64,000 nt of DNA from a virus (Duplodnaviria > Caudoviricetes). The position numbers and the translations under genes were made by a program. The notes beneath the pieces were generated by a model. It was not told where the DNA came from. It searched no databases and was given only the letters and a program-made list of their open reading frames with translations. Of this stretch, positions 80 through 32,260 are shown piece after piece (position 1 is the first letter of the stretch; each line of letters opens with the position of its first letter). The stretch covers positions 25,244-89,243 of the IMG/VR virus record IMGVR_UViG_3300032320_001009; one strand, written 5' to 3'.

Positions 80-342
80 TGGCAAAGCCACTTCCTTACA
101 ATAAGAAGAACGACACAAAGCAAGACCGTCAGACAACTAAAGGCTTGGACAAAGAAGAAAAAGCCAAGTTTGAGAAGATGGACAAGAAGCACCGTAAGCC
201 AAAGAACCAGGCAGATGACCGTCGTATGGACGAAGCCAATGTTCGTAAAATCAAGGCTATGGATAAGCGTCATGAAGCCCGTGAGGGTAAGAAGGGCGAA
301 AAGGCTGAGGACAAGAGAGAACTCAAAGCCAAAAAGAAGTAA
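79..342 (+). CDS. Small K/D/E-rich hypothetical protein
   Basis: 87-aa ORF coupled to the upstream stop and followed by a terminator. Confidence 0.7.
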   Translation: MAKPLPYNKKNDTKQDRQTTKGLDKEEKAKFEKMDKKHRKPKNQADDRRMDEANVRKIKAMDKRHEAREGKKGEKAEDKRELKAKKK

Positions 343-4824: not shown

Positions 4825-7473
4825 GTGGCAGGTGAAGTTAACGACTCGTTGGCGCAAACCAACAAAGAGTTAGACGACATTGTAAAAAAACTTGCTGGCA
4901 TTGAAAAGTCACTTAAATCAATAGGTGGCGGTGCTAGTAAGGTTCCTGGTGCTGTCCGTGGGGCTACAAAAGGTGGTGGCGATAGAGGTATAACTGCTGG
5001 TTCAACTAGCATGATGCCTCAAATGGAGAAGGTTTCTTTCTCCGAAAATGTTGACACAGACATTGTTGGTCGCAGCAAAGAGACCTATAGCCGTCTCGGA
5101 TTAGGAAAGTTCACCCCCAGCGACAGGATGCTTGGAGTTGCTCAAGGAGCAACGCAGATAGGCATGGGCCTTATTGGTGGTGCGATGATGGGTTCCCCTA
5201 GCGCAAACTCAGTACTGTCAAGTTCTGCAAATTACTTTGGAGCATCTTTACGTTCAAGTGGTTTGGGCTATCAGCAAATTACTGCTATGACCATGAAAGG
5301 TCTTGGTAATTTAGGAATTACTGGCGAACAATCTCCAGGAGCAACTGCAGCAATGCTTGCTGCTCGTGGTGTTATGCCAGGGTCTTCTCAATACAACACC
5401 TTGCTTCGTGAAATTGGCGGTGCTGCTCGTGGCTATAACATGGCTAACGAGAATGCAGCCCTTGCTCTTTCGGGATTAACACAAGGCCCTATGAGTGCTC
5501 GTTTGTATGGCGCAGGTATTAGTACATATAACGCACAAACACAACAGTTCCGTGGTGGAACTGAGGTATTCCAACAAATTTATGACCGCATGACTATGGG
5601 TCGACCAAAAGCAACTTTGCAACAAACTATGAACAGTATTCAAGGAGGGTTTTTACAGCAAACCGCTTCAGATTTAGGTATGTCAGAAGACCAAAAACAG
5701 TTGTTCTACCAGTTTGCAGTTCAAAAGGCTGGCGGAAAAGAATCAGACTTAGCAAAACTAGGTGTAGGAGATAACCCCACAACTTCTGCAAAGCGAATTG
5801 TTCAATCTGACGTAGAAACGTTGAATTCTTTTGTAAAACCTGTTCTTAAGGGGATGGAAAATGCTGCTGATATTGTAGAGGGAGCAAATAGGCAACTTCA
5901 AAGGTTTGCAGACCAACTTGGTTACGTAAGTGGCTTAATGGGAGGTCTTGGACAAAGCCGTGTAGGTGGCGGTTTAGGGGCTATGGTTGGAAGTTTTATA
6001 GGCGGTGCTGGGACCATTCTTTCAGGATTAGGTTTAAAAAGTTTGTTCTCAAAAGGCAAAGGTGCACCAGCAGCGACTGGTCCCGCTGCATCAAATGTTG
6101 CTAAAGCAAGTAAATTAACAGGGTTTTTAAAGTTCTTAAAGTTTTCTCCTTTAATTGGCGTAGGTGCTGGTGGTTCTTTCACAGTTGACCCAGAAACTGG
6201 GGAAAAAACACCAAGCAAATCTGGATTGCAAGAACTTATGGAGTGGCTAGAAAGTCGCGGTGGTTCAGGTGGAAGCACCAATACTCCTATGGGTGGTTCA
6301 TTCGGCGGTGGAACACCAGGTGGCTCTAATGCAATTGCTCCGATTATGGGTGGAATTGTAGGAACTCCTTATGGCGCAAAAGGAAAGATGTGGAAGGGCT
6401 CTCACACAGGTGATGACTACCCAACTCCAATTGGTACACCTGTAGTTGCAGCCATGGATGGAATTGTTTATAACGATAACCCTGGTCAGGCATACGGAAA
6501 AACCGTACAGATTGACCACGGCAATGGGTATCAAACTTTGTACGGTCACTTATCAGAGGTCATGGCATCTGTTGGTCAGTCAGTTAAAAAGGGACAGACA
6601 ATTGGTAAATCAGGTGACACAGGAAACGTAGATGGTCCTCACTTACACTTTGAAGTACGTCGCGGTAAGAACAACCCTGTAAATCCAAAAGAACTTGTAG
6701 GCAGTTCTTCTTTAGGAAACGGCCTTGTAGGTGGAGCGTCTTTAAGCGTAGAAACAGAAGGGCTCAAGAGTTCTGAAGTACAACTATCTAAGTTATTTGG
6801 CTCAGGTTCAACTAACGCTCTTTTAAAAGCAGGTGTAACAACTGGCGGTTCTTCCTCAGTTGGCTCTGCAAGTGCTGGAGGAACATCAAGGGTTATTCTC
6901 GGCACAGGTAGCGAAAAAGAGTGGGCTACAGGTCTACTACAAAAAATGGGTGCACCTGTTAATGAAAGTTCTATTGCTGCTCTTACAACGTGGATGCGTC
7001 ATGAAGGCGGTCACTGGAAAAATAGCGCAAGTTACAACCCGCTAAATACAACTCTTGACATGAGTAACAATGAGTCAATGAACAGCGTGGGCGTTAAACG
7101 CTACAAGTCTTGGGAAGAAGGTTACGCTGCAACTATCGGTACTCTTACTGGAAATAAAGCAGATGAGCGTGGATACACAGCAATTGTAAATGCTTTGAAG
7201 AGTGGTGCATCTACTGAATCTATTCTTGGAGCAATTAACAACTCTGCTTGGATGACGGGAAAAACAGGAAAAAACCCTTACAAATTCCAAGGTGGACCCG
7301 CAAGTCTTAGTGTTGCAACTCCGTCAGTAAACAGCGGTGGTGGCAGTGGTGCAACTGTCATTATTAATGCCACATTTGGAAAAGCGACAGAGGCAGAGGC
7401 ATACCAACTTGTTCGACTTGTTAAGTCAGAACTCGAAAAAGACTCTTCTCTTAGAACGATGGGTAGGTCATAA
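4825..7473 (+). CDS. Tape measure protein with M23 peptidase and lysozyme-like domain
   Basis: GTG start; HTGDD, YGHL and GPHLHFEVR (M23); later WMRHEGG..YNPLNTT..GVKRY. Confidence 0.85.
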
Positions 7474-12765: not shown

Positions 12766-13431
12766 ATGCCCGCTGTATACCCATCAGGGGTCAAGTCCTT
12801 TCAAAGTAAAACGGACTTTACCGACATCATTTTGGCAGAGCACGTTAATGCTATCCAAGAAGAAATTACTGCAATTGAAGCATCGGTTGGTGTATCACCA
12901 AACGTATCGGGCGGATATGTAGGTGCATTTGATGACACCACAGTTACCTTTGCAACCCTTTCTGCTCGCATTGCTAACATCGAAAAAGGTATCAAAGGCG
13001 ATGTACATAATCAATACCTAAAATTTACTGGTGGCACAATTCAGCCAGCCAACTCTGGCACAGTTCCCCTTACCCTCCAAGGATTTACTAGCCAAGCAGC
13101 AGACTTGCTTAGATTTACAACATCTGCTGGTTCGGTTTTAACCAAAATTGATAAAGATGGAAAAGTAATTGTCAATAACCAAGAACTAAAGCCAATTCTT
13201 ATGGGGTCTACCCAACCAGATGCTGTTGCTCTTGGATTACCTACAGGAACAATTTGGGTTGATTCAGACTCAACTCCTGCCGTACTTGCTGCCGATACAA
13301 CACTACAAATCACAGGAGGAACCCTTACAGGAGACCAAGCACTTACATCCCGTCTTCGTAACATCACGGTCTCAACTTCAGACCCAACTGGTGGTAATAA
13401 CGGAGACATCTGGATTAAGTACATCGCGTAA
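12766..13431 (+). CDS. Tail fibre proximal protein
   Basis: C-term STSDPTGGNNGDIWIKY fibre motif; baseplate context. Confidence 0.6.
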   Translation: MPAVYPSGVKSFQSKTDFTDIILAEHVNAIQEEITAIEASVGVSPNVSGGYVGAFDDTTVTFATLSARIANIEKGIKGDVHNQYLKFTGGTIQPANSGTVPLTLQGFTSQAADLLRFTTSAGSVLTKIDKDGKVIVNNQELKPILMGSTQPDAVALGLPTGTIWVDSDSTPAVLAADTTLQITGGTLTGDQALTSRLRNITVSTSDPTGGNNGDIWIKYIA

Positions 13432-13440
13432 GGGATACAC

Positions 13441-14664
13441 ATGGCTATCGGCTCTAGAGTATCGGGTAACCTTAAGTCTGCTTCTGGGCTATTTGCAAAA
13501 GTAAATGGCGGTTGGAAGAAGGCTCAATTCGGCTATGTAAAAGTTGAAGGTGAGTGGAAGCAATTTTGGGCAGACAAATTAGAGGATGACTTTGGTCGAG
13601 CAAATACGCAAAGTGGTTTAGGTGTTGCAATTTCTGGTCAGGCTTGGTCTGTCTTAAGAAGTTTGTGGCAAATTAAAGATAACGCTGCTAATACTACAGG
13701 AACTAAAACAGACTACCCATTAGCGAATGTTGAATTAGGATTTATAGATTTTGAACTTGAAGCAAACGAATTAACGCCAGGAACAGGTGTTGCAGTACGT
13801 GTTGAAGACGCAAACAACTGGTGGGGAGTTCTTCCGTTTTACAACCAAACTGCTGAGTCTTACTCATACTGTGTTCAATCTGAAACTGTTTCGTACTGTA
13901 TTCAAGCATGTACTGAACCCTACGATTACACTTTGCGGTGTGACCCGCCCAATACTTTAACTTCAGGGGACATTTACGACTTTTATTGTCCTGCTGGTTA
14001 TGTAATTGGTGAACGAATTGAGTTAGTTGACACGGGTGAGGTCGGATGTACTGGAGGCGGGTACGTCTTAGAGTGCGAAGACGTAGAGACTTGCGTAAAC
14101 AAATGTGTTAAATATGGCTCACGTGGACAATGTATTGACAGAGATATTGTCTGTACCACTAAACGCGTCTGTGGTTATGTCAAGCAAGAACCAGTCTGTG
14201 AGCCCATCTTTGAGGAACGAATCGTAGAGTTTGAGTACTGCCCAGGTGGTGAGGCATACGGTGTAGTGGGAAGTTACCAGGAGTGTGGTCCCGATGGATT
14301 TACTAATGTTCCTTTGTACGCTTGTTGCTTTGCTGGCACTTATGAAAGATGCGTTCAATCAGCCACAGGAATTAACTACACAAATTTCTACTATTTACAG
14401 GTAGTTAAAATGGTTGACGGTGTTTTTTCTGTTGTAAGTTCTGTTGAAGTCCCTTCTCGATGGAGTGCCGTAAAGGTTGTAGGAAACCTCAACACTTTGA
14501 CTGCAACGGCGTATACTGACAGCCTATACACAAATGCTATAGGCACATTTACTACAAACACCTTTACTTCAGCGGGTACGGGATATGGGGTAATGTCACG
14601 TGCAAGTAATTTTGAAGATGCTCGTACAATAGGTTCGATAAAAGTAAAAGCGTTAGGACAATAA
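13441..14664 (+). CDS. Tail fibre/receptor-binding protein: beta-sandwich with an 18-Cys insertion
   Basis: N-term AKVNGGWKK..YVKVEGEWK; lectin-like strands flank a 170-aa Cys-rich segment. Confidence 0.6.
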   Translation: MAIGSRVSGNLKSASGLFAKVNGGWKKAQFGYVKVEGEWKQFWADKLEDDFGRANTQSGLGVAISGQAWSVLRSLWQIKDNAANTTGTKTDYPLANVELGFIDFELEANELTPGTGVAVRVEDANNWWGVLPFYNQTAESYSYCVQSETVSYCIQACTEPYDYTLRCDPPNTLTSGDIYDFYCPAGYVIGERIELVDTGEVGCTGGGYVLECEDVETCVNKCVKYGSRGQCIDRDIVCTTKRVCGYVKQEPVCEPIFEERIVEFEYCPGGEAYGVVGSYQECGPDGFTNVPLYACCFAGTYERCVQSATGINYTNFYYLQVVKMVDGVFSVVSSVEVPSRWSAVKVVGNLNTLTATAYTDSLYTNAIGTFTTNTFTSAGTGYGVMSRASNFEDARTIGSIKVKALGQ

Positions 14665-14665
14665 T

Positions 14666-14947
14666 ATGGAAAAAAGACCTTGGGATATTTGGAAAGAAAA
14701 ACAGGCTGGTGACTCTGTTCGTCCTTGGGATTTAGTTAACCCAAAAATTGGAAGGGTAGATGCCGAGACTTACGAGTATAGATACACCAACCACTGTTTA
14801 AATTGCCCATTCCTTATTCAAGCCACTAAGACTTGCAAGAAATGCGGTTGCTTTATGACTAAAAAGGCTGAATTGCCTCATGCTTCATGCCCCATAGGTA
14901 AATGGGGTTCTGTTACAGTATCTACCGAAGGAGAATCAAATGACTGA
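14666..14947 (+). CDS. DUF6171-like Cys-rich protein
   Basis: CLNCP..CKKCGCF..K...HASCPIGKW. Confidence 0.7.
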   Translation: MEKRPWDIWKEKQAGDSVRPWDLVNPKIGRVDAETYEYRYTNHCLNCPFLIQATKTCKKCGCFMTKKAELPHASCPIGKWGSVTVSTEGESND

Positions 14948-15627: not shown

Positions 15628-17838
15628 ATGGCAAAGTATTTAAGTGCTGTCTATCGTGGTGCGGTTTATGGAAACCCTCCTCGCCTTATTTACAATGCAG
15701 AGCCGATGGAGGCTTCTGCCATTGACTACGGGAAACTATCTGTTTATTGGAACTCGCCTTCGGGAAATTTTACAAAAATTCGTCTTGTTAGAAACAACGA
15801 TAATTTTCCTGAAACAGAAGAAGATGGCGTAATTCTGTGGGAACAAGCCTCTACAACTTCTTTAAGCGGTTTAGTAAGTCGCAATAGTTTTGTAGACGGA
15901 GAAGATAACTTTACTGATGGTATAACCTCAAACGACCTTCCTGTAACTCCAGGTCAGTTTATTTATTACACCATTTGGCTTTTTACAAACAACAGCGTTT
16001 GGATTCCTGCTGGTTACGCATCTGCTTTAATGCCAGAAAATCGCGGAAGTCAAAAAACTTTATTTGAAATTTTGCCAAAGGTATACACAAGTCTAGAACA
16101 AAGCCCAACAGGGATTCCAAACCCTAATAGTTTTATATATAACTTTCTTCAAGGATTCTCGTTTACATTTGACCAAACATTAACGTATGCGGAATTAGTA
16201 AAGCCTTCCTACGGTCGTCGTAAAACTCCCCCTACACTTTTGCCCGCATTAGAAAATAGTTTGGGGCTAACCCCAGAGCGTGGTATTCCATATCGTAATC
16301 AAAAGAAGTTAATACGTGAAGCAATTTACCTGTACCAAACTAAAGGAACTCTAACTGGTATCCAAAATTACATCGAAGCATTGAGTGGCTATAACCCAAC
16401 AGTCACCATATCTCCAAACCTTATGCTAGATACCCAAGACTCTTCATTCACTAAATCAATTGGTCGTTGGACACGTACTTACGGAACTTTAACTGCCGTT
16501 AGCAATAAGCCTGGACCAACGGGTACAAATGCAATTGATACTGTGTGGTCAGGTCGCATGGTTACTGCTGTATCAGTTGTTACTTTTAAATCGCGCTTAA
16601 ACAACGTTGCTACATTAACTACAGGTGCTGCTCACGGATTAATTGCAGGTGATTCTGTTGCTGTAACAGGTGTGGATTCTTCATTTAACGGCAATGTCAG
16701 CGTTGTCTCTGTCCCTACCCCAACAACATTTACTTATGCAAATACTGATGTAAATGTCACACAAGTGGCTGCTACAGGTTCCGTGTCTAATACCTCATCA
16801 ATGTCTCTTGGACGCGATAACCCTGTAAAAAACGGTATACCTGTTAATGCAAGCACCTCATATAAGTTTACCTATCACGCTGCTTCAGACTCAAATGGAA
16901 GTCTTGTTGCTCAAATTTTTTGGTTTGATTACTTAGGAGCACAGATTGGCGGTGCTGTTGAAGGCACTGTGTACGGAACTACGGGCGTGTATCAAAGAAT
17001 TGAGCAGACCGCTACCTCTCCTGCAACAGCGGTATACGCAGGTCTTCGAATAATTTTCCGCAATCAAAATTCTTATAACATTGACATGGTTCAATTTGGC
17101 GAAGCAGCAAAGGTCTCTACATTTGATGAGGCTAGAGCATTTGACGTATTTCTTGAACCAAGAAAAGTAAACATTATTGCTAATCCTTCTTTTGAAACAA
17201 ACACCGATAACTGGACAACAAACTCATCAAAAACACGAGTAGCGGATGTACCAGCAGGTTTGCCAGGAGCCTATTCAATGAGGTTATCTGGGCAGAATAG
17301 TTTGGCTGTTTCCGCAAACGCAAACAAAGTCCCAACCACATACAAACTTACAGAGGGACAGTCATACACATTTTCTTGCTACTTAAAAGCATCTGCAGCA
17401 GCATCGGTCAATGTAAACATCACAGCAGTAGATGACAATGGTCCAGGTTCAGTTACAGCAACAACAGTTGCTGCATTAACAACAGTGTGGAAAAGGTACT
17501 ATGTGTCACTCTTTGTACCTGAAGGTCTCTCTGTCAGTGGCAACATCACATTGAGCGTAGGGTTAACAGGCACTCTTACTGGACAAAACGTCTTTATAGA
17601 TGCAGTACAGGTTGAACAATCCTTTACTCCAACTGATTACTTTGATGGCTCACTACCTCAAGACGTAGGTGTTTTCTGGTCAGGAACAGCCCATGCCTCC
17701 TACTCGTATTATTACGTAAACCGTTTGTCTAAGATGCCTCGCATTATTCTGACACTTAAAGACTGGGTTCCTTACAACGCCCCGTACAGAATCCGCTCAT
17801 TTAAGGGTTTAGAAGGCACAAGCGACACAGTGATTTAG
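15628..17838 (+). CDS. Baseplate wedge/tail protein I-like with carbohydrate-binding-like modules
   Basis: LYQTKGTLTG motif; NPSFET..W, YTFSCYLK, DAVQVE and YFDG. Confidence 0.7.
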   Translation: MAKYLSAVYRGAVYGNPPRLIYNAEPMEASAIDYGKLSVYWNSPSGNFTKIRLVRNNDNFPETEEDGVILWEQASTTSLSGLVSRNSFVDGEDNFTDGITSNDLPVTPGQFIYYTIWLFTNNSVWIPAGYASALMPENRGSQKTLFEILPKVYTSLEQSPTGIPNPNSFIYNFLQGFSFTFDQTLTYAELVKPSYGRRKTPPTLLPALENSLGLTPERGIPYRNQKKLIREAIYLYQTKGTLTGIQNYIEALSGYNPTVTISPNLMLDTQDSSFTKSIGRWTRTYGTLTAVSNKPGPTGTNAIDTVWSGRMVTAVSVVTFKSRLNNVATLTTGAAHGLIAGDSVAVTGVDSSFNGNVSVVSVPTPTTFTYANTDVNVTQVAATGSVSNTSSMSLGRDNPVKNGIPVNASTSYKFTYHAASDSNGSLVAQIFWFDYLGAQIGGAVEGTVYGTTGVYQRIEQTATSPATAVYAGLRIIFRNQNSYNIDMVQFGEAAKVSTFDEARAFDVFLEPRKVNIIANPSFETNTDNWTTNSSKTRVADVPAGLPGAYSMRLSGQNSLAVSANANKVPTTYKLTEGQSYTFSCYLKASAAASVNVNITAVDDNGPGSVTATTVAALTTVWKRYYVSLFVPEGLSVSGNITLSVGLTGTLTGQNVFIDAVQVEQSFTPTDYFDGSLPQDVGVFWSGTAHASYSYYYVNRLSKMPRIILTLKDWVPYNAPYRIRSFKGLEGTSDTVI

Positions 17839-25199: not shown

Positions 25200-25637
25200 A
25201 TGGCACGAGCAGCCGATGCACCACGTGACTTCACTGGTGACGACTTAATATCACAAGCAAAGGAATACATTGCTGTAAAGAAAAACATTGACCAGTATGA
25301 AGAAAGGCAGAAAGAACTAAAGGCTGCACTCTTCCTACAAATTGATGAAGGTGGTTTTGAAGACGACAAGGGAAACATCTGGTTAGAACTTCCAGAAGCA
25401 ATTGATGATTACCTTAGCCTTCAAAAGCAAAAGCGTGTATCACGCAAAATTGATGAGGGCGTTGCAATGACTCTCATTGAAGAAAAAGGTTTAAGAGACC
25501 GTCTTATCAAAACTGTTGAAGTTGTTGATGAAGACGAACTAATGGCTGCTCTTTATGACGGCACATTAACTGAAGAAGAAGTCGATGAGATGTTCCCAGC
25601 AAAAATTGTTTGGGCACTAACATTGAGTAAGAAGTAA
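25200..25637 (+). CDS. Hypothetical protein (N-terminal coiled coil)
   Basis: SD GGAGG; 145 aa. Confidence 0.65.
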   Translation: MARAADAPRDFTGDDLISQAKEYIAVKKNIDQYEERQKELKAALFLQIDEGGFEDDKGNIWLELPEAIDDYLSLQKQKRVSRKIDEGVAMTLIEEKGLRDRLIKTVEVVDEDELMAALYDGTLTEEEVDEMFPAKIVWALTLSKK

Positions 25638-31927: not shown

Positions 31928-32260
31928 ATGGATGAACCTACTTATGCGTGGAGGTATAAAGCACGGTGCAAAGGCGTTGCCGACACCGACATCTTTTACC
32001 CCCCACGTGACAAAGACCTTTACAAAGTAATTGCTGATGAAGCAAAATCTTATTGTTTTGGCGAGAACGGAAAGAACCCTTGTCCTGTCAGACTTAATTG
32101 TCTGTGGGATGCGGTAGAAAGAGAAGAGCCACATGGAATTTGGGGCGGTATGTCACATCGTGAACGTAACGCTTTAATTCGAAAGTGGAAGAAAAGTTAC
32201 AAAAAGAAGATGACATTAGAGCAATACATTATGGGATTGGACGATTGGGATGAGCAGTGA
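31928..32260 (+). CDS. whiB: WhiB-family Fe-S transcription factor
   Basis: Four Cys, IFYP, CPVRLNCL, HGIWGG.S..ER. Confidence 0.9.
   Translation: MDEPTYAWRYKARCKGVADTDIFYPPRDKDLYKVIADEAKSYCFGENGKNPCPVRLNCLWDAVEREEPHGIWGGMSHRERNALIRKWKKSYKKKMTLEQYIMGLDDWDEQ

Follow-up and report, generated by a model that had tools for sequence, protein, structure and literature searches.

The gene P0002 encodes a 407-amino acid protein that resembles a distal tail or baseplate adhesin. It belongs to an uncultured virus (Duplodnaviria; Caudoviricetes) known from an 89,243 bp IMG/VR record (IMGVR_UViG_3300032320_001009, estimated completeness 93%), of which positions 25,244 to 89,243 were analysed as one window of 64,000 nucleotides (43% G+C). 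The protein consists of a short N-terminal adaptor, a beta-sandwich of the concanavalin A (ConA) type divided into two halves, and a long insert between the halves that carries every Cys of the protein (Table 1). Translation of positions 13861-14370 (+) gives 170 amino acids with 18 Cys, starting with YSYCVQSET and ending with CVQSATG. An initial annotation of the window had singled out this stretch, bounded by CVQSET and CVQSAT in an otherwise Cys-free protein, and the translated reading frame confirms that description.

Table 1. Features of P0002 and neighbouring genes (positions are those of the window; aa, amino acids)
Feature	Position	Strand	Basis
P0002, 407 aa, distal tail/baseplate adhesin-like protein	13441-14664	+	Open reading frame in conserved tail module
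N-terminal adaptor, ~45 aa, repeated KV.GGxWK hairpin motifs	13441-13575	+	Weak PHROG matches to residues 1-44 only
ConA-like beta-sandwich, N-terminal half (aa 46-140)	13576-13860	+	Full-model structural match; low entropy
Cys-rich insert (aa 141-307), predicted long two-stranded beta-hairpin, 18 Cys, 9 nested rungs	13861-14361	+	Sequence statistics; models
Predicted rungs 144-304, 153-296/295, 157-295/296, 167-282, 183-267, 203-253, 212-244, 218-238, 222-231			
Kink 1, N-terminal arm, C167-DPPN	13939-13953	+	Non-strand breaks in both models; entropy 0.3-0.6
Kink 1, mirror, PDGF just after C282	14290-14301	+	As above
Kink 2, N-terminal arm, C183-PAGY	13987-14001	+	Non-strand in both models; conserved
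Kink 2, mirror, C267-PGGE	14239-14253	+	As above
Tip loop, C222-VKYGSRGQ-C231	14104-14133	+	Turn at residues 226-230 in both models
ConA-like sandwich, C-terminal half (aa 308-407) and stop codon	14362-14664	+	Models; structural match; entropy
P0075, 221 aa, fibre-like	12766-13431	+	C-terminus matches end of tail-fibre PHROG; synteny kept
P0074, DUF6171-like, 93 aa, six invariant Cys (C-x2-C-x9-C-x2-C-x-C-x12-C)	14666-14947	+	Pfam; conserved residues; adjacency
Tape-measure-like protein, 882 aa, Cys-free	4825-7473	+	Peptidase_M23 domain (110 bits)
736-aa protein, P2 gpI-like segment joined to CBM_4_9	15628-17838	+	
WhiB-family gene, inside open reading frame 31928-32260	31949-32176	+	58.1 bits

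The Cys of P0002 lie at residues 144, 153, 157, 167, 183, 203, 212, 218, 222, 231, 238, 244, 253, 267, 282, 295, 296 and 304 (nucleotides 13870-14352). Cys accounts on average for 0.72% of residues in the long open reading frames of the window, and at that rate 18 or more in 161 residues would arise by chance with a probability of 3e-16. The remaining structural genes of the phage are almost free of Cys, with 0-5 each. The insert contains no His, Met, Trp or CxxC motif. It has 26 acidic and 11 basic residues (net charge approximately -15), and both faces of the predicted ribbon mix beta-branched with charged residues, a composition more in keeping with an exposed single-layer ribbon than with a surface that is buried or in a membrane. 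The N-terminal and C-terminal halves of the insert do not match each other by blastp. The symmetry noted in the initial annotation is therefore a mirror symmetry of the Cys positions and not a duplication of sequence.

The number and placement of these Cys follow a simple rule among homologues. In the close set, which consists of 72 full-length homologues with 31-88% identity to P0002, the Cys count is even in all 72 and ranges from 14 to 34, with every Cys inside the insert. The distant set consists of representatives of clusters at 50% identity, with the insert borders set by hidden Markov models of both scaffold halves. Here all 55 representatives with mappable borders have an even number of Cys in the insert, and the count for the whole protein is even in 128 of the best 146 (p = 1e-21). 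The placement was examined with a mirror test, in which the k-th Cys from the N-terminal side is paired with the k-th from the C-terminal side and the spread of the summed residue numbers (i+j) is taken. The sums in P0002 are 448, 449, 452, 449, 450, 456, 456, 456 and 453, with a standard deviation of 3.1 compared with 13.8 for random placement. Nearly all 72 close homologues show a standard deviation of 1.5-3.6 (null about 13), regardless of how many rungs they have. Residues that lie opposite each other across an antiparallel hairpin are recognised by just such a constant i+j.

Cys columns that are partners in this ladder also appear and disappear together, with a phi coefficient of 0.63 against 0.02 for non-partners (e.g. 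28/28/28 and 8/8/8). Relatives carry 7-17 rungs compared with the nine of P0002, and close relatives differ by whole rungs: P0005 is without 222/231, P0010 is additionally without 212/244, and P0007 and P0009 have gained 193/261. One Cys of a pair can move by a few residues without any shift of its partner, and the alternative positions are mutually exclusive; the partner of C167, for example, shifts among four such positions. The even counts, the mirrored spacing and the joint gain and loss of partners, all read from sequence, indicate that the staples are almost certainly disulfides.

The shape of the insert was approached with two AlphaFold2 models, one of the full protein (72-sequence alignment; predicted local distance difference test score, pLDDT, 89.3; predicted template-modelling score, pTM, 0.60) and one of the insert only (28 sequences; pLDDT 90.3, pTM 0.40). 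In full-length numbering the strands are 130-166, 172-182, 188-204 and 207-225, mirrored by 231-249, 252-266, 272-283 and 288-321. In both models the breaks between strands are mirrored about residue 228 and the chain turns at residues 226-230. The insert is best read as a single long antiparallel beta-hairpin with nine nested disulfides, and the long mirror-symmetric strands of both models bear out the hairpin that had been proposed from the letters alone. Three kinks are conserved, each with a counterpart on the opposite arm. These strand breaks look like disulfide-clamped kinks, and at the second of them a CPxG motif is present on both arms at the same level.

Comparison of the insert-only model with the PDB returns only 7 chains at Z of at least 2, the best with Z 2.9, and these are short hairpins and the long stems of the anthrax protective-antigen and lysenin pores. 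A typical model in such a search would reach Z 7-8. Superpositions on BFVD models have root-mean-square deviations (rmsd) of 30-50 A over ~200 columns and give no meaningful match. These comparisons of a predicted structure point to a strongly elongated, non-globular insert, a stalk without a knob. Of the stalk-and-knob arrangement first suggested, the stalk is thus retained and the knob is not: the nested ladder continues up to the tip loop, and no compact fold is found. With ~165 residues, or ~80 per arm, the ribbon could reach up to ~25 nm if straight.

The body from which the hairpin projects is predicted to be a ConA-like lectin sandwich, a two-sheet jelly-roll of the CBM66 type. The best match of the full model among PDB representatives is CBM66 itself (4b1m; Z 17.4, rmsd 2.3 A, 148 aa), followed by the receptor-binding domain of gp23 from mycobacteriophage TM4 (9n6a; Z 15.3), a Douge baseplate protein (8zdo; Z 15.2) and the CBM2 of J-1 Dit (5ly8; Z 12.8). 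The structural match spans the insert (model residues 52-404), and the flanking segments NNWWGV and YYLQVVKMVDG, which were initially taken to belong to one beta-sandwich, fall in the same ConA-like sandwich of the model. No relation to these proteins is visible at the sequence level. Pfam gives no family for P0002 at E up to 1, PHROGs give only weak matches to families without known function, and the best PDB sequence found with the family profile has E 0.34. Foldseek with the full model returns nothing from the PDB at E ≤0.001, and tblastn of P0002 against 50,697 GenBank phage records returns no match.

The insert is also where the family varies. Over the whole family, mean entropy is 1.07 bits in the N-terminal domain, 2.21 in the insert (2.40 without Cys) and 1.45 in the C-terminal domain, and insertions and deletions in the family alignment are confined to the insert. 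Within the close clade, entropy is 0.5-0.6 in the scaffold, 0.9-1.0 at the base of the hairpin and 0.3-1.0 at the kinks. It rises to 1.6-1.8 in segment R2 (172-182, 272-283), 1.7-1.9 in R3 (188-204, 252-266) and 2.0 in R4 (207-221, 235-249), and is 1.6 in the tip loop. The distal two thirds of the hairpin are hypervariable and the kinks are conserved. Nonsynonymous divergence (dN) at non-Cys sites of the insert is 3-10 times that of the flanks, and the ratio of nonsynonymous to synonymous divergence (omega) is 0.2-0.58 compared with 0.05-0.25. Since hairpin length varies while i+j remains constant, insertions and deletions must be matched on the two arms. Entropy, dN and indels all exceed those of the scaffold, so the hypervariability anticipated for the insert is present. 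Compared with the genes around it, the whole gene diverges far more rapidly; in L015, for example, it has 38% identity and the flanking genes 69-76%. A diversity-generating retroelement (DGR) was considered as the source of this diversity and rejected, as the phage genome contains no reverse transcriptase (PF00078) and, by blastn, no second copy of the insert.

The gene adjacent to P0002 on the 3' side, P0074, encodes a small DUF6171-like protein. Its invariant residues are R39, C44, C47, C57, C60, C62, M64, K67, C75, P76 and W80. The Pfam score for DUF6171 is 26.0 bits (25.3 in a second search) against a cut-off of 27, and a relative (L115:6927-7193) scores 31.1 bits; among the atlas neighbours of P0074, PF19668 is found in 20-33% of members. 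A six-Cys open reading frame occurs within 500 nucleotides downstream at 64 of 92 distinct Cys-rich family loci from diverse phages and within 3.5 kb at 7 more, and is absent at all three loci with a Cys-free family member. The six-Cys DUF6171-like protein is encoded on at least 575 viral contigs. In a sample of 65 such loci with enough upstream sequence, a P0002-family member lies upstream in 32, and most of the others have Cys-rich adhesin-like genes upstream (6-38 Cys, with fn3 or PASTA domains). At one locus (L156:3313-3993) a thioredoxin-fold gene (PF00085, 43.5 bits) lies 2 nucleotides upstream of the DUF6171-like gene. The phage genome itself has no Erv1/ALR, thioredoxin, glutaredoxin, DsbA or VKOR. 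As no known thiol oxidoreductase is encoded by the phage, the DUF6171-like protein is the sole candidate helper. It may be a general companion or maturation factor of Cys-rich virion adhesins. A sequence search of the PDB with P0074 found no match, and the literature searched contains no mention of a DUF6171-like protein.

Based on these observations, P0002 is proposed to be a distal baseplate or fibre adhesin in which a ConA-like body carries a long, nine-rung, disulfide-laddered hairpin that serves as a host-contact probe, and we give this interpretation a probability of roughly 0.6. The N-terminal adaptor would dock the protein onto the baseplate or the upstream fibre, and cell-wall glycans may be ligands of the ConA-like body. 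In the sandwich, two adjacent edge strands would be extended into one antiparallel beta-ribbon, and nine cross-strand disulfides would stiffen this thin single layer and make it resistant outside the cell. Fast evolution and length change by matched indels are the reasons for regarding the distal region as the probe: most likely, the distal two thirds offer a long variable surface to the host envelope and set specificity. The Cys are probably reduced during synthesis in the cytoplasm. The register of the hairpin could pre-align each pair, in which case oxidation would proceed without an isomerase, be it in oxic water once the cell has lysed or with the aid of the DUF6171-like factor. Oxidation after lysis and dedicated helpers are the two routes named in the initial annotation, and the DUF6171-like protein gives the second a concrete candidate.

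Several points weigh against this interpretation. The presence of P0002 in the virion and its contact with a receptor are themselves inferred. The tip loop is slightly less variable than the adjoining arms, and it is the distal arms that vary most. Mean omega of the insert is below 1, hence positive selection is not demonstrated. In the AlphaFold2 register C222 faces residue 234 and not 231, AlphaFold2 may over-regularise the structure, and pTM is low in both models, so that the overall shape may be straight or folded at the kinks. The phage has no recognisable thiol oxidase. Finally, the DUF6171-like gene is also found behind genes for other Cys-rich adhesin-like proteins, and sometimes behind Cys-poor genes, and is therefore not a partner specific to P0002.

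Some of the same observations could be accommodated if the hairpin were disulfide-laddered but had a structural role, either as a strut or latch on the baseplate or as part of a multi-subunit barrel or sheet bundle similar to the stems of beta-pore toxins or the phi29 collar. This is a less likely possibility, suggested by weak Foldseek matches of the full model to pore-form protomers and phage collar proteins, which combine a globular domain with a long hairpin, and by the conserved kinks and base and the less variable tip loop; tail proteins are also usually oligomers. However, no part of the tail module varies more than the distal arms, which are also free to change in length, a poor fit to a conserved packing interface, and the charged residues on both faces are unlike the buried or membrane surface of such a bundle. 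A bolder version of the probe, which must be regarded as doubtful, is a free-standing cystine-ladder needle of ~25 nm without solved precedent, matured in a reducing actinobacterial cytoplasm by a dedicated six-Cys metalloprotein; the DUF6171-like protein would then be a new disulfide-forming factor.

The topology and the chemistry of the insert can each be questioned as well. The insert might be a compact Cys-rich domain, with the ribbon doubled back on itself at its three kinks to give an accordion or sandwich, or with a core of the knottin or EGF-like kind. The low pTM would allow a compact fold, the breaks of 4-5 residues at 167-171, 183-187, 267-271 and 284-287 could be reversals, and there is no solved example of an isolated two-stranded ribbon this long. 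A ladder of constant i+j nevertheless demands pairing of arm to arm along the full length, and in the insert-only model two of these breaks are reduced to two residues. Many PDB matches, rather than seven chains, would also be expected for a compact beta domain, and the large rmsd of the superpositions indicates a very elongated model, which together make the compact domain unlikely. Very unlikely is the proposal that the Cys bind metal (Zn, Fe or an iron-sulphur cluster) in place of forming disulfides. Metal binding would suit synthesis in a reducing cytoplasm by a phage with no evident oxidase, and Cys4 groups could be drawn from 153/157/295/296 and 218/222/231/238. The insert, however, has neither His nor the CxxC or CxxH knuckles of a zinc ribbon or Cys4 module, and counts of 14, 18, 22, 26 and 34 occur, which are not multiples of four. 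Five rungs lie at least 9 residues from any other Cys and can only pair two by two, and Cys are gained and lost in twos. Of the disulfide or metal staples between which the initial annotation did not choose, disulfides are thus strongly favoured, and metal is unlikely.

The proposed adhesin combines features that are known separately. The theta-defensins, protegrins and tachyplesins are secreted cystine-ladder hairpins of 17-20 residues with 2-3 rungs. Like them, the insert is predicted to be an antiparallel hairpin with nested, parallel cross-strand disulfides; unlike them, it has ~165 residues and nine rungs and is part of a virion protein made in the cytoplasm. The bovine ultralong third complementarity-determining region of the antibody heavy chain (CDR-H3), to which the insert was likened at the outset, is also a beta-ribbon stalk that leaves a beta-sandwich, is variable and contains Cys that are kept even in number. 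The analogy extends to the stalk but not the knob, as the ladder of P0002 is nested up to a 10-residue tip loop. The ribbon is also several times longer, and it varies by ordinary divergence instead of a dedicated mutator.

Among phage proteins, the nearest parallels to the scaffold are the ConA-like receptor-binding domains of phages with Gram-positive hosts. The C-terminal domain of TM4 gp23, the Douge baseplate protein and the CBM2 of the evolved Dit of Lactobacillus phage J-1 share with CBM66 and P0002 the same beta-sandwich fold (Z 12.8-17.4). The phage domains occupy the same position in the tail-tip or baseplate module, and the actinophages TM4 and Douge likely share a host phylum with the phage of P0002. 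We know of no domain of this group (9n6a, 8zdo, 5ly8, 4b1m) with a Cys-ladder hairpin insert of ~165 residues. The receptor-binding proteins Mtd and the tentaclins, which have a C-type-lectin fold diversified by a DGR, likewise show a variable beta-hairpin on a lectin-type scaffold (PMC10743442). Their hairpin is short and their scaffold is not ConA-like, and a tentaclin identity for P0002 was rejected because the fold differs and tentaclins depend on a DGR. In Pam3, a cyanomyophage from freshwater like the myovirus described here, virion disulfides were shown by mass spectrometry and dithiothreitol, and functional disulfides are present in its baseplate and fibres although assembly is cytoplasmic (PMC9942802). 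Those bonds join fibres to wedge proteins and stabilise the wedge, and do not form an intrachain hairpin ladder (PMC9942802). By analogy with Pam3 the proposed chemistry has a precedent, but the architecture does not.

The host range of a phage is set mainly by its receptor-binding proteins, and the P0002 family is large. Because each level of the ribbon would be fixed by its own disulfide rung, its length and sequence would be free to change, an unusual way to display a variable surface at a distance from the virus particle. If confirmed, this would be a new display scaffold, highly evolvable and chemically robust, and to our knowledge the longest natural cystine ladder. It would also offer a case in which to test how viruses assembled in the cytoplasm come to have many disulfides, the DUF6171-like gene being a candidate factor, and a handle for linking uncultured freshwater actinophages with their hosts.

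A profile search of 1.84 billion cluster representatives (E ≤0.001) finds 1802 representatives of the family, which is present on at least 160 viral contigs. Mapped inserts range from ~70 to ~240 amino acids among distant representatives and are longer in the largest members, and many members of the superfamily are rich in Ser, Thr, Gly, Tyr and Cys. The simple nested ladder is significant in approximately half of the distant representatives, and the remainder probably differ in topology. A few Cys-free members with inserts rich in Tyr, Thr and Ser also occur (P0103, P0178, P0182 and L051:5001-6134), with PPSYYAG repeats in P0178 and P0182, and in such Tyr-rich inserts an aromatic ladder may take the place of the cystine ladder. 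In the giant proteins P0087 (2471 aa), P0112 (1848 aa), P0119 (1899 aa), P0139, P0173 and P0177, 5-8 matches to profile positions 47-128 are found. These repeated matches to the N-terminal half of the scaffold are, as read from sequence, putative tandem arrays of the lectin-like module. Family members in UniProt and BFVD are uncharacterised proteins of uncultured Caudovirales, and neither the family nor any phage adhesin with a long hairpin of the cystine-ladder type is described in the literature searched.

The genomic context of P0002 is well conserved. The gene is located in a contractile-tail baseplate module that also includes the sheath, a tape-measure-like protein with an M23 peptidase and a gpD-like hub. 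The order of genes is gp25-like, Baseplate_J, gpV-type OB domain, the 221-amino acid fibre-like protein, P0002, DUF6171-like, two small genes, and P2 gpI-like with CBM_4_9, and this order is kept in ~40 related viral contigs. The fibre-like protein directly 5' of P0002 (P0075) is a possible shaft that would hold the adhesin. The N-terminal adaptor of P0002 also heads unrelated C-terminal domains in L046-L050 (e.g. L046:5971-6978 and L048:2195-3481). Its partners there include Gly-rich proteins, a Hint-like segment and a repeat protein resembling a beta-propeller. The sharing of the KV.GGxWK N-terminus suggests a common docking module for interchangeable tail-tip proteins.

The gpI-like protein also contains a carbohydrate-binding domain and is likely a second host-binding protein of the same module. 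The Peptidase_M23 domain of the tape-measure-like protein likely provides a cell-wall-degrading activity for entry. The phage is probably a myovirus of ~89 kb with an actinobacterial host. The host assignment follows from the WhiB-family gene in the phage genome; among the control genomes, WhiB was found in Corynebacterium only. Paired CxxC motifs are present in several small open reading frames of the early region of the phage genome.

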